A DNA stretch of 64,000 nt from a virus: the IMG/VR virus record IMGVR_UViG_3300037493_001906, positions 1 through 64,000 of that record; one strand, 5' to 3'. The position numbers and the translations under genes are program-made. This document shows positions 4,378 through 59,393 of the stretch, piece by piece. The notes under the pieces are model-generated. The model ran no database searches. It had not been told where the DNA came from and worked only from the letters and a program-made list of their open reading frames with translations. The stretch's first letter is position 1. Each line of letters starts with the position of its first letter.

Positions 4378-5483
4378 TAATTCAAAATAATTTGTATATT
4401 GCAAACATGAAAAAATTATTCAAAGAATGTTTGCATAAAAATCTAAGTAATAAGTCAGGTATATACATTATAAAATGTAATGAACACACTTATATAGGTA
4501 GTAGTTGTAATCTATACTATAGATTAAAAAGACACGTGAGTGATCTTAATAATTTAAAACATAGTAATAAATTTTTACAAAACTTATATAATAAATATGG
4601 TTCAGACATTATAATATTTGATATAATTGAATATTGTAATATTGAAACTCTAATAATTAGAGAAACATATTATATAAAAACTATGTCACCTGATATTAAT
4701 CATGATTTAAATCCTGTAAAAAGAACTTTTAAAAAAGAATCTATAGAAAAGATTTCTAAAAGTTTAAAACAGTTATATAAATTAGGATTAAAAAACCCTT
4801 TTTCTAAAGAAGTACATAGATATAAACCCGATGGAAAATACATTGATTCACATGAATCATGCTGTGCTGCAGGTAGAAAATTAAATCTTAATGGATCTAA
4901 AATTTCTAAAGCAGCATCAGGTAAAGGAAGTTCATCTGGTGGGTATTTATGGTCTTATGAGAAAGTTGATAAACTAATAAAAAACATAAATCAATCTAAA
5001 AGAGTAAGATCTTTAGATATAAATAATAATGTGATTCACACATGGTTATCTATAAATGATTTATGTAAAGATTTAAAAATTAGTCATTCAGCTACATCAT
5101 TACGAATTAAAAAAGGTAATTATTACAACGGTTTAAAATACAAATTTATCTAGTTCCAGGATAAAATTGGGTGAATTGCTGGAAACTCCTTAGAGTCTTA
5201 TTAGCTACAACATAACTAGAAATGGTAAGTGTGAATGCAGAAAATAGTAAGAATTGGACAATCAGCAGCCAAGCATAAATCTAAAAGGTTTGTGAAGGTT
5301 CAACGACTAGGTATTGAAACTAAGTTCCTCAACGGATTATCTCCAACTGAGTTCTGCTTAGAATATAAAATACCCAAGAGTGCCCGACAATTAAGTTTGA
5401 AAGACAACTTAATTGAAGATATAGTCTGAACTATAGTGAAAGCTATAGAAGTAAAGATAAAGAGCTTTACGATAACATAATTG
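4378..5483 (+). mobile_element. Group I self-splicing intron (probably subgroup IA), about 1106 nt
   Basis: The 5' exon ends in U (4377) and the intron ends in G (5483). Core elements: P AATTGCTGGAAA 5174-5185, Q AATCAGCAGC 5260-5269, R GTTCAACGACTAG 5298-5310, S AAGATATAGTCT 5416-5427. P7 GACTA/TAGTC; P8 and P9 hairpins with GAAA loops. The internal guide TAGTTCCAG (5151-5159) pairs with CTGGGATTA, with a U.G pair at the splice site. Confidence 0.93.
4407..5153 (+). CDS. Intron-encoded GIY-YIG homing endonuclease (248 aa) with C-terminal NUMOD-like DNA-binding modules
   Basis: SGIY-x9-YIGSS-x5-RL motif, conserved Glu (RETYYI) and an HTH-like KEVHRYKPDGKYIDSHES...GGYLWSY module. The ATG at 4407 is preferred over the track's TTG at 4359, which lies in exon 1. 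Confidence 0.88.
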   Translation: MKKLFKECLHKNLSNKSGIYIIKCNEHTYIGSSCNLYYRLKRHVSDLNNLKHSNKFLQNLYNKYGSDIIIFDIIEYCNIETLIIRETYYIKTMSPDINHDLNPVKRTFKKESIEKISKSLKQLYKLGLKNPFSKEVHRYKPDGKYIDSHESCCAAGRKLNLNGSKISKAASGKGSSSGGYLWSYEKVDKLIKNINQSKRVRSLDINNNVIHTWLSINDLCKDLKISHSATSLRIKKGNYYNGLKYKFI

Positions 5484-51681: not shown

Positions 51682-54600
51682 TTATCTTGGCGAGTAAAGT
51701 TCTTTATTATTTGTTAGAATCACAAGCATTTTGTAAGGATTACCATTTGGATACTTTGTATTATCATTAACAGGATCTTTTCTTAACCAAACTGTATTAG
51801 TATAATGTCTGAATTTTTTTCTTTCAAAAAAGTCTTTAGCATAATTAAGATTAACTGTATTTAAAGTTCTAGCATAACCATTAGCCCCAGTATTCCAAAT
51901 CATTCTCTCTGCAAAACCAGGAATATTAGGATTAAAATATTCACCTCTGTCATCAGTAATATCCCAGAACTGATTAAACCTATACTTGTTTTCTTCTTTA
52001 GAATAGAGTATATCTATTACATTAGAACCAATAATTGGATAGGTAGTAATAAGTTGAGGATCTTTTTTAATTGCTGTAGAAAGATTTAATCTTAAGTATC
52101 CTGAAACCTGTTCAGTATTGTAAATAACAGCCTTGTCAAAATTATAATCAAGCACATGGAATCTATCAAACCCATTAGTATCATACTTGTAACATTCAAG
52201 TTGATACTCAATGCTTCTTAGAGTATTAACAGTTTGTACAGTATTAACCATATACTCTACTTCAAATGGATAGTTAATACCATAATAATTACAATAGCTT
52301 TGATAAGCTAAATTGTGTATCCATATTCCATTGTTATGAGTAGTCAAAAATGTATTCTTACCAGGGATAACCAAGTCAGGATGCCAATCATGATAACTTA
52401 TCCAAGAACCAATTTTAGGATCATAACTAATAGTCCAAGAAGCATCTTCAAAATAAAGTTGCCATACAGGAATTGGAGGTTGTCCTTGTATTGGATTTGG
52501 AACTAATTGAGTATCATCTCCAAGTTTAATAGCAAACATATAAGCATTATTCATATATATATTAAAGGTATTGTCTTTTAATATATCATCATATTGAACA
52601 GTTATAGATGCAGGTAAATCTGTTCTTAAGCTATAATCTTTCTTGGTAAAGTAAAGTAGACCATTTTGATTATCATAGATACTTTGTGTTCCTACACCAA
52701 TAACAGGATTGTTAGTTAATGCAAAATTTGGAAATTGTTGAACAAGTTTAAAGGGGAGGTAGAGAACTAACCACCACTTGATGTCATTCATTGAAAGCTC
52801 ATTAAGCGAGTTAGTATAGGAAAATATTTTCCCTTGGTTTTGGCTAATCCAATAAATACCCATTGGAGTATTAATTACACTTAATCTGTCTTGACAAGAA
52901 GCAAACTCATATGGCCTATCTGCATTAGTTATACTTTGTAAAGGTTGACTAAATAATCCACCATCACCAATAACAAGTTTAGTACCTAATCCAGTTTCTA
53001 AAGTATCTGTACCTTGGAACATAACAGGACTTTGAGATTCAAAGAATATCATAGCCCCACTTTTATTAATAGGTTTTATACAAGTTAATGTTGATTCAAA
53101 GTCTTTATAATTATTAATTAAGAATATACTCCAGTTATCTCTAAGACTTTCATACTGATTTGGTAAAGAATAAATAACTCTATTCTTACTATACACATAA
53201 CAGTCTTCTGCTAATACAGGATTATAATTATATCTTTGGGTTGCTGCCCAAGAAACATAATTTAAAAATAACTTAGAATAACTTAGACTTTGATCATACT
53301 TATAATAATTAGTAGCTTTTATAATACCTGTATTAAATAAGATATTTGTATCATCATAATAACCTGGGTCATAAAATCTTTCAGTATCTAATTCTCCCCA
53401 ATCTCTTTGAGCAAGATTGATTTCAGTTTCTACATAAAAATCTTTTACTCCAGAATTAAATAAGTAGAACCATGCATATTCCATAGAAAAGGAAAGTGAT
53501 GTAAAATTAGGTAGTACAACCCATGTTCCTGGCGTATTACTTACATCATCTAAACTATAATAACTACTAGGAGTAACAATAGCATTAGGATTAAATGTAT
53601 TAAAAAAAGTACCCATTGATGAGGTAAAATCTCCAGTTTGAAATTGATTAAAGTTTGCCCAATATCTTGGATAAGGAATCATTTCATTTTTAGTATAATC
53701 AAATTGTGTTCCATCAGGTTCACCATACATCCAATTATAAAAATAGAAGAATGTGTTTTTTTCAGTATACCTTCCTACATAAGTATCTCCACCAAATAAA
53801 GTTCCTGTAGTTGAATTAAGATTTAATACACCTGTTCTTGGATTAGGAATATATAAAGGTGTAGTACATGTTGAAACAGGAATAAGAGATATACTATTAA
53901 TTTGACCATATTGATTTATTAACCTTTGTTTTAATGAAGCATAGTGAGAAGATGCTGTTTGAGGTCTTGTTCCTTTTGGATATGTAGCTAATCTAAAGTT
54001 TACATCTGAACTATAATCTGCAGGATTCTGAGAAGAAAAAGATTGTTTAGATGGATTTTTTACCTGAAGGTTATTAAAGATTGAAGGCTCTGCTAAAGCC
54101 ACAACATCTGTAACTCTTATTCTACTAAAATCACCTGTATCAGGATTTTTTAATGTATTGCCAGTTTGAATAGCTACATAATTAGACCTATATAAATTAT
54201 TAATTCTGTAAGTAGAATTAAATGTTGCAATTTGAGGACCAATATATTGTGCATGATTAATAACCCTTCTTCTATCACCAGTTGTAGGTATTGCATAATC
54301 TGTATATAAACAATGTGAATGATACCTTAATGCATAATCTTTATAACTAATAACAGCTTTAAAAAAGTTTAATGCAGTGTCTGTACCTTGAGTAAAGTAA
54401 TTAAAAAATAAAGGAATATTAGCCGTTAAAGCACTCACACTTGCCATGGGCATGTTTTGATATGCCCCATCTGCTTGTTCAATGTTTACTGAACCAGTGT
54501 TTAATCCATTATGTGTTGCTGTTTCTACATTATAGGCTTTATTTAAACCATTATATATAAAAGTATCATCAGATTTTCCTAATAAATTATTTGACCATGA

Positions 54601-57132
54601 GGTAAGTAAACCACCTTTTAGATTATTATAGTTTTTAAAATAGTTTAATAATGTAGTACCTATTGCTGTACCACTTCCTGTATTATTAAAGTATGCAATA
54701 TCTGCTTGAGTAGGAGATGTTACAATTAAATCATTTTGATTAATTGTTGTATCTCCTGTTGTATCATCATTGCCTGATGCATAAGTATTAGTATTTATGT
54801 TTGCAAACAAAGGAAATACTGTTCCTGGACCAAGAGTACCACTAGTATTACGTGTAGCAATATCTGTACTTAAATTATAATTTACTTTATGAGGTAAGTT
54901 TTCTTCAGAAAAACCCTGCATATATGGAGATACATAATTTACTTTTCTTTGACCATTCATTGCAATAGCAGCAATACCAAGACCAGCTAAAGCAGATATT
55001 ACAAAACAAAAATCTTTAATTAATTTTTCTCTTGGATGCTTATCTGATAATTCAAATTTACCTGTTATATTACCATGAAATTCACCATGAATTTTTATTT
55101 CTTTAGCAGAGAGGAATGGATTAACAAAAGTTGTATCAGGACTATGAAAACTAAATATATTATTATTAATGGATGCTTGAGGATTATATCCAACTTGGTC
55201 AATCATACCTCCACCATATGGATATTTTTGACCAGTTGTAGGGGTAGTAGATAAGAATGGATCAGCACCAAGATCATTATAGGGATAGTTAGCATATAAA
55301 CCTTTTTTACCTGAATTATCAGGTAGAGTATATTCTCTCATATTATTTATGAGACCTTTAGCTAAAATGGTTTTATTACCATTTCTTGTTCCTCTAAAGA
55401 TTTCATAACCCACAATACCTACAACAGGAGTACCATCATTTTTAATTGGTGCCTTAATCTTATCAAATACTACACCAAGTATTCTTATATTTCCTGTTAC
55501 AGGATCTGTGTATAGACAAGTAGATCCTGGACCAGTATTTAAATCAGGAAATTTATGATGTCTAATTTGTCTACCACAAAGATCAAATTGACCTTTTATA
55601 GAAACTCCATTTCCTATTCCTGGTGTTGCAGCTTGAATATTATATGGTAATACTCCTGGAATATTAAAACCAGGATTTAAAGTATTTGTTTCTGAATTCC
55701 ATACTTCAGGATTATCATCTGGATATTGTTCTGATGATTCCCAATATCCCATAATACCTTCTCCAATAACAACACCACCATCTGATAATATAGTATTAGG
55801 AGCATTAGTAAAAACAGATGTATTACCTACAAACCATTCTTCATTTGTAAGATCACCAGTTATACTATCTAGAGCATTAGGTATTCCATCTATTCCAGGT
55901 GCATTAAATTTTGGTCTACCAGGAATATGATATGCAGAAGATTTATCTCCTGTATCATATACCCATCTTATAAAAAAAGAATAAACTTCATCTCTTAAGT
56001 AATTAGTTTTATTTCCACCTTTAATATAATAATCTGCAGGATATTCTATAGATTGCCATTTTGTAATAATTTGGTTAGCTAAAGGTTGGTAATTAAAATC
56101 TTCTTTTGAAGTAGGTCCTGTTCTAATTAAATATGAACCAACAGAATATGTAGCATCTGTTTTATCTATAATAGGTGTCATGATTGGAATCTGTTCAATA
56201 GGAAAAGTTGGCCAAGTATTATCTATTGTATCAAAACTAAGTCTTTGTTGATGTGTACTATATACACCTGCTAATTTTGCTACTGTTTGTTGATTTACTA
56301 CAGATATAATTACTATTTGAAATTCTGTAAATCTAGTATCTAAACTAGTTAATATAACATCTAATGAACAGGAAGAGTTATTATGATTAAATAATGATTG
56401 CACATTTGATATATACCAATCACTTATTTTTTGGCCATCTACAGTATATGCAATAGCAACCATGTATGAACCATTGAGTAGTGTTCCTGAACCAAAACCA
56501 TTTTGTACTTCTACACAAGGCGTATCAATAAAGGTAGCTAATCTTAATTTATTACAATCAAGATTCTTTGAATTTATTGTATTATTACAAGTAGCAGAGT
56601 TATTAGGATCTGGAACTTGAATCCAAGGAATAGGACTATTAGGATTTAAATAACTATTATCAGATACTGGGTCAATAGTAAAAGTAAGATTTCTTGTTGG
56701 ATTTAATCCATCATCCCAGTATGCCCTATATGTACAACTAACTACAGGTCTTGTTACACCCTTAATTAAATTGGTTGCAGAAAAATTAAGACAAGGATCA
56801 TTTACAACAGTTTCATATGTACATAATGATTCAGTAAAAATACCTATCTCATGACAAGGACCATTAGTAGTATAAATTAACCATTTATCTGCAGTGATAT
56901 GTATTGTTCCAATGATTTTAGGAATTGAAGTACCACAACCAGTATAGGTTATATTAATACAATTTATATTTGAAGGTTCATTACCTAACTTTCCTAAGTC
57001 ACCAGTTTTAGAATTGTTTATAGCATTTCTAGCCTGGGTCCAGGAATCATCAGGTAAGTGAAAATCATTTACATCTTCACTTAACTCTTTGTCAAATCTA
57101 CGTGTATTAATCTGATTAGTATCTTTTGCCAT
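51682..57132 (-). CDS. Tail muzzle/stabilization protein (P22 gp10-like, crAss-type; 1816 aa)
   Basis: N-terminal FDKELSEDVNDFHLPDDSWTQARNA, beta-rich body, NYLRDEVYSFFIRW and WISYHDW motifs; downstream of the probable ring genes. Confidence 0.7.
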   Translation of the reverse strand: MAKDTNQINTRRFDKELSEDVNDFHLPDDSWTQARNAINNSKTGDLGKLGNEPSNINCINITYTGCGTSIPKIIGTIHITADKWLIYTTNGPCHEIGIFTESLCTYETVVNDPCLNFSATNLIKGVTRPVVSCTYRAYWDDGLNPTRNLTFTIDPVSDNSYLNPNSPIPWIQVPDPNNSATCNNTINSKNLDCNKLRLATFIDTPCVEVQNGFGSGTLLNGSYMVAIAYTVDGQKISDWYISNVQSLFNHNNSSCSLDVILTSLDTRFTEFQIVIISVVNQQTVAKLAGVYSTHQQRLSFDTIDNTWPTFPIEQIPIMTPIIDKTDATYSVGSYLIRTGPTSKEDFNYQPLANQIITKWQSIEYPADYYIKGGNKTNYLRDEVYSFFIRWVYDTGDKSSAYHIPGRPKFNAPGIDGIPNALDSITGDLTNEEWFVGNTSVFTNAPNTILSDGGVVIGEGIMGYWESSEQYPDDNPEVWNSETNTLNPGFNIPGVLPYNIQAATPGIGNGVSIKGQFDLCGRQIRHHKFPDLNTGPGSTCLYTDPVTGNIRILGVVFDKIKAPIKNDGTPVVGIVGYEIFRGTRNGNKTILAKGLINNMREYTLPDNSGKKGLYANYPYNDLGADPFLSTTPTTGQKYPYGGGMIDQVGYNPQASINNNIFSFHSPDTTFVNPFLSAKEIKIHGEFHGNITGKFELSDKHPREKLIKDFCFVISALAGLGIAAIAMNGQRKVNYVSPYMQGFSEENLPHKVNYNLSTDIATRNTSGTLGPGTVFPLFANINTNTYASGNDDTTGDTTINQNDLIVTSPTQADIAYFNNTGSGTAIGTTLLNYFKNYNNLKGGLLTSWSNNLLGKSDDTFIYNGLNKAYNVETATHNGLNTGSVNIEQADGAYQNMPMASVSALTANIPLFFNYFTQGTDTALNFFKAVISYKDYALRYHSHCLYTDYAIPTTGDRRRVINHAQYIGPQIATFNSTYRINNLYRSNYVAIQTGNTLKNPDTGDFSRIRVTDVVALAEPSIFNNLQVKNPSKQSFSSQNPADYSSDVNFRLATYPKGTRPQTASSHYASLKQRLINQYGQINSISLIPVSTCTTPLYIPNPRTGVLNLNSTTGTLFGGDTYVGRYTEKNTFFYFYNWMYGEPDGTQFDYTKNEMIPYPRYWANFNQFQTGDFTSSMGTFFNTFNPNAIVTPSSYYSLDDVSNTPGTWVVLPNFTSLSFSMEYAWFYLFNSGVKDFYVETEINLAQRDWGELDTERFYDPGYYDDTNILFNTGIIKATNYYKYDQSLSYSKLFLNYVSWAATQRYNYNPVLAEDCYVYSKNRVIYSLPNQYESLRDNWSIFLINNYKDFESTLTCIKPINKSGAMIFFESQSPVMFQGTDTLETGLGTKLVIGDGGLFSQPLQSITNADRPYEFASCQDRLSVINTPMGIYWISQNQGKIFSYTNSLNELSMNDIKWWLVLYLPFKLVQQFPNFALTNNPVIGVGTQSIYDNQNGLLYFTKKDYSLRTDLPASITVQYDDILKDNTFNIYMNNAYMFAIKLGDDTQLVPNPIQGQPPIPVWQLYFEDASWTISYDPKIGSWISYHDWHPDLVIPGKNTFLTTHNNGIWIHNLAYQSYCNYYGINYPFEVEYMVNTVQTVNTLRSIEYQLECYKYDTNGFDRFHVLDYNFDKAVIYNTEQVSGYLRLNLSTAIKKDPQLITTYPIIGSNVIDILYSKEENKYRFNQFWDITDDRGEYFNPNIPGFAERMIWNTGANGYARTLNTVNLNYAKDFFERKKFRHYTNTVWLRKDPVNDNTKYPNGNPYKMLVILTNNKELYSPR

Positions 57133-57203
57133 TATCTAACTATTTTATCACCGTAGAGATCATTAGGATTTTTGTCCCACTGATACCAAGGATAACTCTT
57201 AAA
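57132..57203 (-). pseudogene. Orphan diverged copy of the last 23 codons of the 57677..58714 gene
   Basis: FKSYPWYQWDKNPNDLYGDKIVR* versus FKSYSWFQYDRNPNNYMGERVIR* (12/23 identical, most of the rest conservative). No start codon; its stop overlaps the muzzle ATG (TAATG). Confidence 0.88.
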
Positions 57204-57212
57204 CTTACTTTA

Positions 57213-57680
57213 TTATTTATGTTTTACAATATATTCAATTGCTTTAAGCATAATATTTATATTATCTTTAAATTTTCCAATACCTGTATTACAATTATCA
57301 CATAAAAAACCTCTAATTTTTTTAGTATTGTGACAATGATCTAATGAAAGATCTTTTTTTTGTGATGAGTTATGTTCACCACAAATGGCACAATAGCCGT
57401 TGTAAAAATCATAAAGTTTTTTATATTCTTGTTTAGTAATTTTTATACCCTGTTTTTTATAAGAAGACATTTTAACCCCTAATTTAAATTTTTCAGGATT
57501 TTGTTTTCTATAAATACTTGACTTTATTTTATTTTTTTCTAAATTTTTTGGAAGTTTAGCTCTTTTTTTTGCATCTTCATTTTTACAAAATTTGCAATGA
57601 GACGCATATCCAGACTTGTTTCTAGGTTCAACTCCAAATAAAGAAACCTCTTTATTTATTTTACATTTTGTACAAATCAT
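57213..57680 (-). CDS. Free-standing endonuclease VII-like (His-Me finger) homing endonuclease (155 aa)
   Basis: N-terminal CTKC...HCKFC finger; CAICG...LSLDHCH...IRGFLCDNCNTGIG EndoVII core. Confidence 0.88.
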   Translation of the reverse strand: MICTKCKINKEVSLFGVEPRNKSGYASHCKFCKNEDAKKRAKLPKNLEKNKIKSSIYRKQNPEKFKLGVKMSSYKKQGIKITKQEYKKLYDFYNGYCAICGEHNSSQKKDLSLDHCHNTKKIRGFLCDNCNTGIGKFKDNINIMLKAIEYIVKHK

Positions 57681-58714
57681 CTAATTACCCTTTCTCCCAT
57701 ATAATTGTTTGGATTACGATCATATTGAAACCAGCTATAACTTTTAAACATATCATAATATTTTGCATACTGAGCTCTACGATTAGTAGTCCATACTCTT
57801 TTCATTTCTGAGAAGTTAGGAGTATTAACAATAGTAAGAGCATAATTTCTTGCTGCTCTATATCCCTCTTGAATAAGTTGAATCTTAGCAGGACTAATAT
57901 TCTCATCATTCATGATAAGATTTTCTAGTATTCTTTTTTTAATAGCATACTCATAGTACTCATTTATCATATCATGATCTGGAACCATAAGATTACCTTC
58001 ATCATCTTCTAGATCACCTTGATAATTAACATATACTTTACCTGTTGTGAAACTGGTATAGAGATAGCCATTTTTTATCCAAGCAGAATTAACTGAATTA
58101 AGATACAAATTAGGACATCCACAATCTATTGATTCAGGATTCTCTAAAATTCTAATTGGCATTAATCTCTTATATGTATTAGTAGTTGTATTGATTCTCT
58201 GTACTAACTCATAGCAATCATTTTTACAATTCATAAATACCCTAGGCTTCCTACAGTAGTCACCAAATGGTTCTAAAGGATTGTAGTCTTGTGTAGAGCA
58301 TGCAGTAGAAGCAGCAATACAATTGCATGGTTCAAAATTGCATCTATTACAATTGACTGTAGGAGCTGCACAGACATCTATTGTTCCTGGAGTTTCTTGG
58401 TAAGGAGCTATTAGCTTTTCTTCAATCCAAGTACCTTGTGGCATAGCTTGTTGTACAGTAACTTCATCACAAATAAGTGCAAAGTTAAGAGTAAAGAAAT
58501 CATCAGGTAGTTTTACTCTTCCTTTTTCAACATCAAGTAATGCTTCTTTAGTCATCATAATCCTAAGACCAAGATCATAGTTAACTCTCTTAGCAACTTT
58601 AATAAGTTGTTGAGGTTCTATTTGATTTTGTAAAGCAGCATTTTGAAAATCAACCAGAGCTTCACTTAGAAGTTGATCAAATGTTCTATATTTAAGTGTA
58701 TAATTATACGACAT
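57677..58714 (-). CDS. Probable tail ring/tubular (head-tail connector) protein (345 aa)
   Basis: Position upstream of the muzzle gene; GKVYVNYQG...VPD...EYYEYAIKKRILE pattern resembles gp4-like ring proteins. Inferred from context. Confidence 0.5.
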   Translation of the reverse strand: MSYNYTLKYRTFDQLLSEALVDFQNAALQNQIEPQQLIKVAKRVNYDLGLRIMMTKEALLDVEKGRVKLPDDFFTLNFALICDEVTVQQAMPQGTWIEEKLIAPYQETPGTIDVCAAPTVNCNRCNFEPCNCIAASTACSTQDYNPLEPFGDYCRKPRVFMNCKNDCYELVQRINTTTNTYKRLMPIRILENPESIDCGCPNLYLNSVNSAWIKNGYLYTSFTTGKVYVNYQGDLEDDEGNLMVPDHDMINEYYEYAIKKRILENLIMNDENISPAKIQLIQEGYRAARNYALTIVNTPNFSEMKRVWTTNRRAQYAKYYDMFKSYSWFQYDRNPNNYMGERVIR

Positions 58715-58718
58715 TGTT

Positions 58719-59393
58719 TTATGTTCTTAGTTGACTTTGTTTATCATCTTGCCCTTCTGCATGCATTTGAACCATCAGACTTAATTCTTTTATTGCATTT
58801 TGCTCTACTTCAGCAAATAGGTATTCAGGATACTGTAGTTTATTATCTTGGATAGGAGCACATTCATCACCATCACAAAGTAAATATTCAATACTTTCTT
58901 CCCATAATCCTTCTACTCTTACTGCTTCCCAAGTTACATTAGGTAAATAAAGATAACCATTTAAATACCAATAATACTTAACATTGTTATATTTAAAGTT
59001 AGTGCTCTTTGTCATGGCTACATATGTAGCTGGCTGAGTTCTATAACAAAGTTGAGAGCCATCAATAGAACTTACTGTTCTAAAGATAGCTCCATAGTCA
59101 CCTTCTAATACTGTAGGTAGTTTATCTTTTGTACGCATAATTGTACAATTAGATTTTATATCATTACAACAAGCTTCTACTCTATCTACCTCAATTAGAT
59201 CTACACAAGGTAGTGGAACAAATAAACTTTGAAAGCTTAAGATCTTATTTAATACTTGTTGTTTTCTAATAGATAGTTTAGCATATTTTGTTACTATGCT
59301 ATATATAAGGCGATCTGTTAAAAAGGCATCTTCATTGACACCTTTCATAACATTTCTTATTCTTGATATTGATTCTCCTATAGTTAGTCCCAT
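58719..59393 (-). CDS. Probable tail ring/structural protein (224 aa)
   Basis: TIGESISRIR...LTDRLIYS and YYWYLNGYLYL; position in the crAss-like tail module. Confidence 0.5.
   Translation of the reverse strand: MGLTIGESISRIRNVMKGVNEDAFLTDRLIYSIVTKYAKLSIRKQQVLNKILSFQSLFVPLPCVDLIEVDRVEACCNDIKSNCTIMRTKDKLPTVLEGDYGAIFRTVSSIDGSQLCYRTQPATYVAMTKSTNFKYNNVKYYWYLNGYLYLPNVTWEAVRVEGLWEESIEYLLCDGDECAPIQDNKLQYPEYLFAEVEQNAIKELSLMVQMHAEGQDDKQSQLRT

Follow-up and report, generated by a model that had tools for sequence, protein, structure and literature searches.

The stretch of DNA analysed here, hereafter the window, comprises 64,000 nucleotides (positions 1 to 64,000) of the metagenome-derived IMG/VR virus record IMGVR_UViG_3300037493_001906, which is 118 kb long, and derives from a crAss-like phage; the locus described here is the tail module of this phage and is encoded on the minus strand. 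Within it, a homing-endonuclease cassette has most probably inserted at the codons for the FKSY residues of ring protein 1 (R1), bringing a substitute for the last 23 codons of this virion gene and stranding the native ones downstream. The evidence comprises a contiguous foreign block at the FKSY codons, a native gene end that was displaced by it, an enzyme whose family is competent for homing, repeated use of the same site in other phages, and a recent date of the insertion. Along the minus strand, the genes for ring protein 2, R1 and the endonuclease are followed by a second R1 end that lacks a start codon and, finally, by the muzzle gene.

The foreign block and the displaced native end

As now expressed, R1 is a predicted protein of 345 amino acids (57677..58714, minus strand, as for all features below), in which the body is native and the last 23 codons, followed by TGA (57677..57748), are imported. 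This TGA overlaps the ATG of the endonuclease gene as ATGA at 57677-57680. The endonuclease gene (57213..57680) encodes a free-standing protein of 155 amino acids and ends with TAA TAA; after a spacer of 9 nt it is followed by a second R1 end, the relic, which consists of 23 codons plus TAA (57132..57203), contains no in-frame ATG, GTG or TTG, and overlaps with its TAA the ATG of the muzzle gene (57130-57132). Replacement tail, endonuclease gene and spacer together form a cassette of 545 bp (57204..57748). Because 545 equals 3x181+2, the relic falls into the endonuclease reading frame, from which it is separated by two stop codons (57204-57215: TAA TAA plus two codons). The imported tail and the relic share 12/23 residues, 44/72 nt and 10/23 third codon positions, a likeness far beyond chance: when the R1 tail was compared without gaps to the six-frame translation of the whole 64-kb window, the runner-up agreed at only 8/23 positions. 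The initial annotation had described this layout, including the two overlaps, the start-less second copy and the heavy codon divergence between copies that are 12/23 identical in protein, and re-examination of the minus strand reproduced all of it, coordinates included.

The origin of the two ends is revealed by relatives that have no endonuclease at this position. Searching viral and metagenome contigs with R1 yielded 103 related loci, and about 97 of these include both the R1 end and the muzzle start. In these approximately 97 loci, the FKSY position and the muzzle start are 24-116 nt apart, which leaves room for one tail only; neither an endonuclease homologue nor a relative with both tail copies was present among them. 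Five more distant loci have an unrelated ORF of 120-136 amino acids at this place. The two genes overlap as TAATG or TGATG in 38 of the 78 distinct junction sequences, and most others are separated by a gap of a few bases. An alignment scan of genome contigs for the endonuclease found nothing, and a tblastn search of the GenBank phage collection with R1 gave no match.

The closest relative, L042, carries an R1 that is 93% identical in protein, and its DNA is about 97% identical to the window over 4.4 kb. When both sequences are aligned, the DNA identity of the R1 body amounts to 92-100% until the FKSY codons are reached; there, a single gap of 545 bp (57204-57748), the only large one, corresponds exactly to the present R1 tail, the endonuclease gene and the spacer. 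The single tail of L042 is joined to the muzzle start by TAATG and equals the relic at 23/23 amino acids and 64/72 nt, whereas the inserted tail matches it at only 12/23 amino acids and 43/72 nt. Likewise, the tails of the next relatives, L043 to L045 (80-82% identity), share 59-60/72 nt with the relic versus 44-45/72 with the present tail. These data bear out the expectation that relatives without the endonuclease should display one C-terminus, coupled to the muzzle gene by TAATG and closer to the relic; the opposite case, an endonuclease-free relative with both copies, was looked for among the approximately 97 loci and did not occur. The downstream copy thus corresponds to the displaced native end, as had been proposed, and because tail and endonuclease form one contiguous block that is absent from L042, the further proposal that the upstream tail arrived together with the element is also supported.

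The cassette is bounded by a 13-nt direct repeat that covers the FKSY codons (left copy at 57737..57749, right copy at 57192..57204) and is identical at 12/13 positions. This repeat defines the polarity of the event: the Ser codon is AGT in both copies and TCG or TCA in L042 to L045, with TCG in L042 itself. Since a repeat-mediated deletion of the cassette would have left AGT behind, L042 represents the ancestral empty site and not a secondary loss. The relic and the L042 tail differ at 8 nt in 6 codons and all of these differences are synonymous, against a mere 16% expected for random single substitutions in this sequence, which implies that the relic was coding until recently. The insertion itself is therefore recent, because the relic is undecayed and differs from L042 by synonymous changes only.

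The imported tail retains the positions that are conserved in the tails of this clade, i.e. FKSY, W, D, NPN, G and the final R, and for this reason looks like a working R1 end from another lineage. Its nearest natural counterparts share 16-17/23 residues (P0292, P0041, P0028), and its DNA matches every natural tail fetched at 41-47/72 nt. Viral contigs contained 0 matches to a degenerate DNA pattern that represents the initial 11 distinctive codons of the imported tail, a region-restricted protein search with the R1 end at near and shorter lengths returned no tail closer than 17/23 amino acids, and in the nucleotide comparison with all fetched tails none rose above 47/72 nt. By these comparisons, the donor lineage of the tail would be an unsampled one.

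The neighbouring genes agree with the assignment of the locus. R1 matches PF24228 (CrAss_Ring_1, E 1.6e-11) and lies between ring protein 2 and the muzzle gene, a gene order that is found in about 100 loci and identifies it as the crAss-like ring protein 1. Its upstream neighbour, the ring protein 2 gene (58719..59393), matches PF25702 (CrAss_Ring_2, E 6.8e-18). The muzzle protein gene downstream (51682..57132) encodes 1816 amino acids with matches to PHROG virion structural proteins; its N-terminus is 97% identical to that of the L042 muzzle protein, and its native upstream context of 72 nt is kept.

The endonuclease and its homologues at the junction

The endonuclease contains a recombination endonuclease VII domain (PF02945, E 3.9e-23) at residues 77-151 of 155, and its PHROG annotation is 'endonuclease VII'. 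The protein combines an N-terminal CxxC...CxxC region with a C-terminal catalytic domain, and in 14 homologues with identities down to 46% the residues C97, C100, D114, H115, H117, R123, C127, C130 and N131 are invariant. These residues form the pattern CX2C...DHxH...R...CX2C-N and include every catalytic and zinc-binding residue of the F-CphI (DHHRN) family. The same pattern is essential in F-CphI, a free-standing enzyme of cyanophage S-PM2 that is biochemically proven as a homing endonuclease (Fang et al. 2018, PMC6083498). The window protein and F-CphI are 34% identical over 108 amino acids (E 1e-20), and the alignment reaches the C-termini of both. In this family, the position of the motif separates two clades, with a C-terminal motif in endonucleases and an N-terminal one in resolvases of the T4 gp49 type (PMC6083498); in the window protein the motif is C-terminal, as in the endonuclease clade (PMC6083498). 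Its classification as a homing endonuclease, already suggested by the initial annotation, is thus backed by the complete set of family residues and by the similarity to a proven enzyme, and the family match points to an F-CphI-like (DHHRN) homing endonuclease with an Endo VII motif of the HNH type.

Among solved structures, the site-specific restriction enzyme Hpy99I is the best match (E 5e-10), followed by T4 endonuclease VII (E 7e-7), for which the similarity is limited to the catalytic core (residues 80-142 versus 6-73). A Holliday junction resolvase of the T4 endonuclease VII type was considered as an identity for the protein and rejected, as only the core and not the full length aligns and Hpy99I scores better. 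Related genes occur in 1,639 GenBank phage records, all below 60% identity, with 34-38% for the best 15 of the 1,639; the annotations among the matches listed include 'endonuclease VII' and 'HNH endonuclease'. The Endo VII-motif family as a whole counts 96,698 representatives at E<=1e-3, and no fusion of R1 with an endonuclease stood out among the top representative matches, whose sequences were not opened. A second copy of the endonuclease gene was not found in the 118-kb viral record.

Homologues of the enzyme are found at the same position in other crAss-like phages. The best two in IMG/VR, L122 (50% identity) and L123 (46%), each directly follow an R1 gene whose product is only 40-47% identical to the window R1. 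In L123 the endonuclease gene is located between R1 and the muzzle gene and its stop codon overlaps the muzzle ATG, while in L122 it is located between R1 and a small open reading frame (ORF) that precedes the muzzle gene. Closer homologues are P0002 to P0007, with identities of 59-81%. Two further ones, P0008 and P0009 (58% identity, 172 amino acids), are known at the protein level only, and their extra C-terminal residues match R1 tails of another lineage, at 15/15 positions for the end of P0101 and at 10/12 for P0121 or P0061. In these two proteins the endonuclease reads in frame into a partial relic, whereas the window has TAA TAA between endonuclease and relic. The full relic, the fused partial relic and the lack of a relic may represent stages of decay, and since L122 and L123 have none, tail replacement is not obligatory in this clade. 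The sporadic presence that characterizes homing genes is observed as well, as the gene is absent from L042 and the approximately 97 relatives, and homologues occupy the same junction in L122 and L123.

Proposed homing mechanism and rival explanations

The cassette has most probably entered R1 23 codons before its end, carrying a diverged but family-typical tail in frame with the R1 body. R1 thereby stays complete, and the native 23 codons are displaced downstream as a predicted untranslated relic that abuts the muzzle start. In the proposed mechanism, the enzyme would, during mixed infection, cut endonuclease-free R1 alleles at or across the FKSY junction, and the break would be repaired from a cassette-bearing genome, with the R1 body serving as left arm and the relic plus the muzzle start as right arm. 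The cassette-bearing genome itself is probably immune, as the insertion splits the target and the new tail differs from the native one at 28/72 nt; the same divergence would also keep the two copies from recombining and thereby deleting the cassette. Most likely, the recognition target extends across the FKSY junction, because the 75 nt upstream of it, which are identical to L042, and the relic remain essentially unchanged in the filled genome. With a site located entirely in either flank, the phage genome would itself be open to cleavage, unless this is tolerated by the enzyme, as is the case for some HNH enzymes.

A role of the relic in muzzle translation is possible, as the native 72-nt leader with TAATG has been kept, and the coupling of R1 to the muzzle gene is broken. 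The interval from the endonuclease to the muzzle gene contained neither a terminator nor an unusual RNA structure, the predicted folding around the relic being no better than that of shuffled sequence; these results neither support nor exclude a role in muzzle initiation.

Several observations weigh against homing as the cause of the present layout or limit its details. In the alignment with L042, no converted tract from a diverged donor is visible upstream of the junction. The identity of the 75 nt to L042 implies either that the last donor was a near-identical genome that already carried the cassette or that the left crossover occurred within the FKSY codons. The AGT in the third codon of the relic gives a weak hint that the right crossover lay inside the relic and that the donor already had a relic, and the hint is weak because it relates to a single Ser codon, for which 28/56 of the more distant relatives also use AGT. 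Furthermore, no donor was found, the best tail matching at 17/23 amino acids, and the nearest endonuclease is only 81% identical and sits on a contig of 1.2 kb. L122 and L123 are devoid of a relic, and the activity of the enzyme, its target site and the immunity of the new allele are predictions from sequence.

Among the rival explanations, the one that deserves most attention, while being improbable in our assessment, is a passive gain of the block when co-infecting crAss-like phages underwent homeologous or illegitimate recombination. In this case the nuclease would not be the mover; it might act for the phage in resolving or debranching DNA, be directed against competitors, or be inactive for homing. 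PF02945 indeed also covers true resolvases such as T4 gp49, homing by this enzyme is a prediction, the junctions lie in a 13-nt repeat that could have provided microhomology, and a diverged co-conversion tract is not seen. However, the C-terminal motif, the restriction of the T4 endonuclease VII match to the catalytic part and the closer relation to F-CphI and Hpy99I argue against a resolvase (PMC6083498), and the absence of the gene from about 100 relatives, one of them 97% identical, argues against a core function. In addition, distant lineages repeatedly have homologues at this junction, and some homologues carry their own relics, which is the signature of site-specific homing. The same recurrence bears on the possibility that metagenome assembly joined two strain variants of the R1 end. 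The record is indeed a metagenome-derived viral contig, but the two copies are separated by a complete ORF of 468 nt with a precise stop/start overlap, the same kind of gene is present at the same junction in independent contigs, and two independent homologues carry R1-tail relics, so that we regard an artefact as very unlikely.

A tandem duplication of the R1 end in situ, followed by divergence of one copy and a later landing of the endonuclease between the copies, would account for two homologous copies in direct orientation that are bounded by a short repeat, yet it is as improbable as an assembly artefact. The downstream copy equals the L042 tail at 23/23 amino acids and the upstream copy at only 12/23, in a genome that is otherwise about 97% identical, and divergence in situ would require an impossible rate within 72 nt. 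Moreover, tail and endonuclease are missing together from L042 as one block, and none of the approximately 97 relatives displays two near-identical tails without an endonuclease. Still less credible is an insert that acts as an intein or a self-splicing intron, so that the native R1 end would be restored and the upstream tail left unused. Introns of T7-like and other phages often encode endonucleases with the Endo VII motif (PMC6083498), but neither strand of 56800-58100 matched an Rfam family at E<=1, and the endonuclease is out of frame with R1, as would not be the case for an intein. Furthermore, the upstream tail continues the R1 frame to a stop codon of its own and is typical of the family, and the RNA around the relic folds no better than shuffled sequence. 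A group I or group II intron endonuclease and an intein endonuclease were accordingly discarded as identities of the ORF.

Beyond the insertion of a homing cassette in this one genome, a wider scenario can be advanced tentatively, which we rate as less probable than not being the case. The clade would be a long-term specialist of the ring-1/muzzle junction that carries a portable and functional 'adapter' C-terminus across lineages, with the stranded tail serving as right homology arm; some lineages would have fused this tail to the endonuclease and thereby restored the coupling to the muzzle gene. Because it carries its adapter C-terminus, such a clade could cross between lineages with R1 tails that are too diverged to recombine. 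If true, it would be the first phage counterpart of the mobile elements of fungal mitochondria that are considered below, and the full relic of the window, the fused partial relic of P0008 and P0009 and the relic-free state of L122 and L123 would form a decay series.

Related systems and other elements of the module

The closest parallel is provided by the mobile endonuclease ORFs (mORFs) of fungal mitochondria, for which C-terminal replacement is described in atp6 of Allomyces macrogynus and in atp6, atp9, cox2 and nad3 of Glomus sp. (PMC3630166 and its reference 48). As in the window, the order in mORFs is a gene core, a foreign C-terminus in frame, the endonuclease ORF and the native C-terminus stranded downstream (PMC3630166). 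In both cases, the native copy is nearly identical to an element-free relative, with synonymous changes only, and the DNA identity of the inserted copy amounts to about 60-70%. For Glomus atp6, the native end agrees with the relative at 91% in DNA and 100% in protein, compared with 63.5% for the inserted end (PMC3630166); the corresponding figures for the window are 89% in DNA (64/72) and 100% in protein for the native end, and 61% (44/72) for the inserted one. The window thus displays the traits of an mORF, i.e. a foreign end in frame, then the endonuclease, then the native end, with the native copy nearest to the element-free relative. The mORF type of expression is predicted from the reading frames, as two stop codons precede the relic and a start codon is missing from it. 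Whereas mORFs reside in organellar respiratory genes and encode LAGLIDADG or GIY-YIG enzymes, the host gene in the window encodes a phage virion protein and the nuclease belongs to the Endo VII-motif/HNH type. Moreover, only a very short piece of 23 codons is duplicated in the window, and the relic abuts and overlaps the start of the next essential gene.

Phage systems share the enzyme or the mobility with the window, but not the duplicated gene end. F-CphI is likewise a free-standing phage gene product of similar size (142-155 amino acids for both enzymes), with an N-terminal CxxC region, a C-terminal Endo VII motif and the same zinc-binding and catalytic residues (PMC6083498). Different from the window enzyme, it adjoins the intron-containing psbA and targets the intron insertion site, and it neither brings a replacement coding sequence nor leaves a relic (PMC6083498). 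The intron-less homing genes of T4, such as SegB, MobE and others, resemble the window element in being intergenic or at gene ends and in being present or absent among close relatives, and they spread by double-strand break and repair with co-conversion of flanking markers (PMC2330249, PMC2790892, PMC2988022). In T-even phages, homing does no more than convert the flanks, without leaving a second copy of a gene end (PMC2330249, PMC2790892, PMC2988022), and the enzymes are of the GIY-YIG or HNH_3 types, in contrast to the Endo VII-motif enzyme of the window. T4 endonuclease VII (gp49) and Hpy99I possess the same beta-beta-alpha-metal catalytic core as the window enzyme, but in gp49 this core is N-terminal, is combined with a dimerisation domain and resolves junctions, and Hpy99I has a methylase as its partner, so that mobile cassettes are represented by neither of them.

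No phage precedent for C-terminal replacement by a free-standing endonuclease was found in the literature searched, a partial coverage that does not prove absence. The architecture is known in kind from fungal mitochondria, and the window adds a very clean example in a new phage setting rather than a new principle. It illustrates that neither an intron nor an intein is required for a selfish nuclease gene to invade the coding region of an essential virion gene, provided that it brings a spare end, and that the mitochondrial strategy of a mobile ORF with C-terminal duplication operates in phages too. Empty site, filled site, native end and imported end are all on hand, which makes the case unusually well resolved and allows the target to be predicted to within about a dozen bases. 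For annotation, short start-less copies of gene ends beside nuclease genes should be considered as relics, and the R1 tails of crAss-like phages can be chimeric.

The ring/muzzle module contains additional elements. In a relative whose R1 is 62% identical, a 232-amino-acid GIY-YIG protein (L006:3299-3997, plus strand; PF01541, E 2e-7) is encoded between ring protein 2 and R1 without intergenic space, and no duplicated gene end was seen at this protein. It looks like a second, unrelated free-standing endonuclease, and its presence suggests that the ring/muzzle module is a hot spot for such elements. Elsewhere in the window, a GIY-YIG domain (E 1.7e-9) is present at 4455-4691 on the plus strand, within an open frame of 277 amino acids, and may belong to another homing endonuclease.

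In a more distant clade, an additional ORF of 119-136 amino acids occurs between R1 and the muzzle gene (L122:3470-3856, L022:4809-5219, L117:3883-4245, L118:887-1270, L119:1555-1914 and L120:1678-2046). The ORF of L122 contains the HExxH-like motif HEIFH and has no Pfam match. Longer R1 proteins, exceeding the usual length by 140-240 residues, are encoded at L112:815-2278 (487 amino acids) and represented by P0053 (582 amino acids) and P0141 (560 amino acids); they keep a normal C-terminal tail and thus carry an internal insertion. Finally, within the muzzle gene, the identity to L042 falls from about 97% to 67-71% over approximately 200 nt (54700-54899, minus strand), with several small indels, and this segment appears to be a local mosaic or hypervariable patch.

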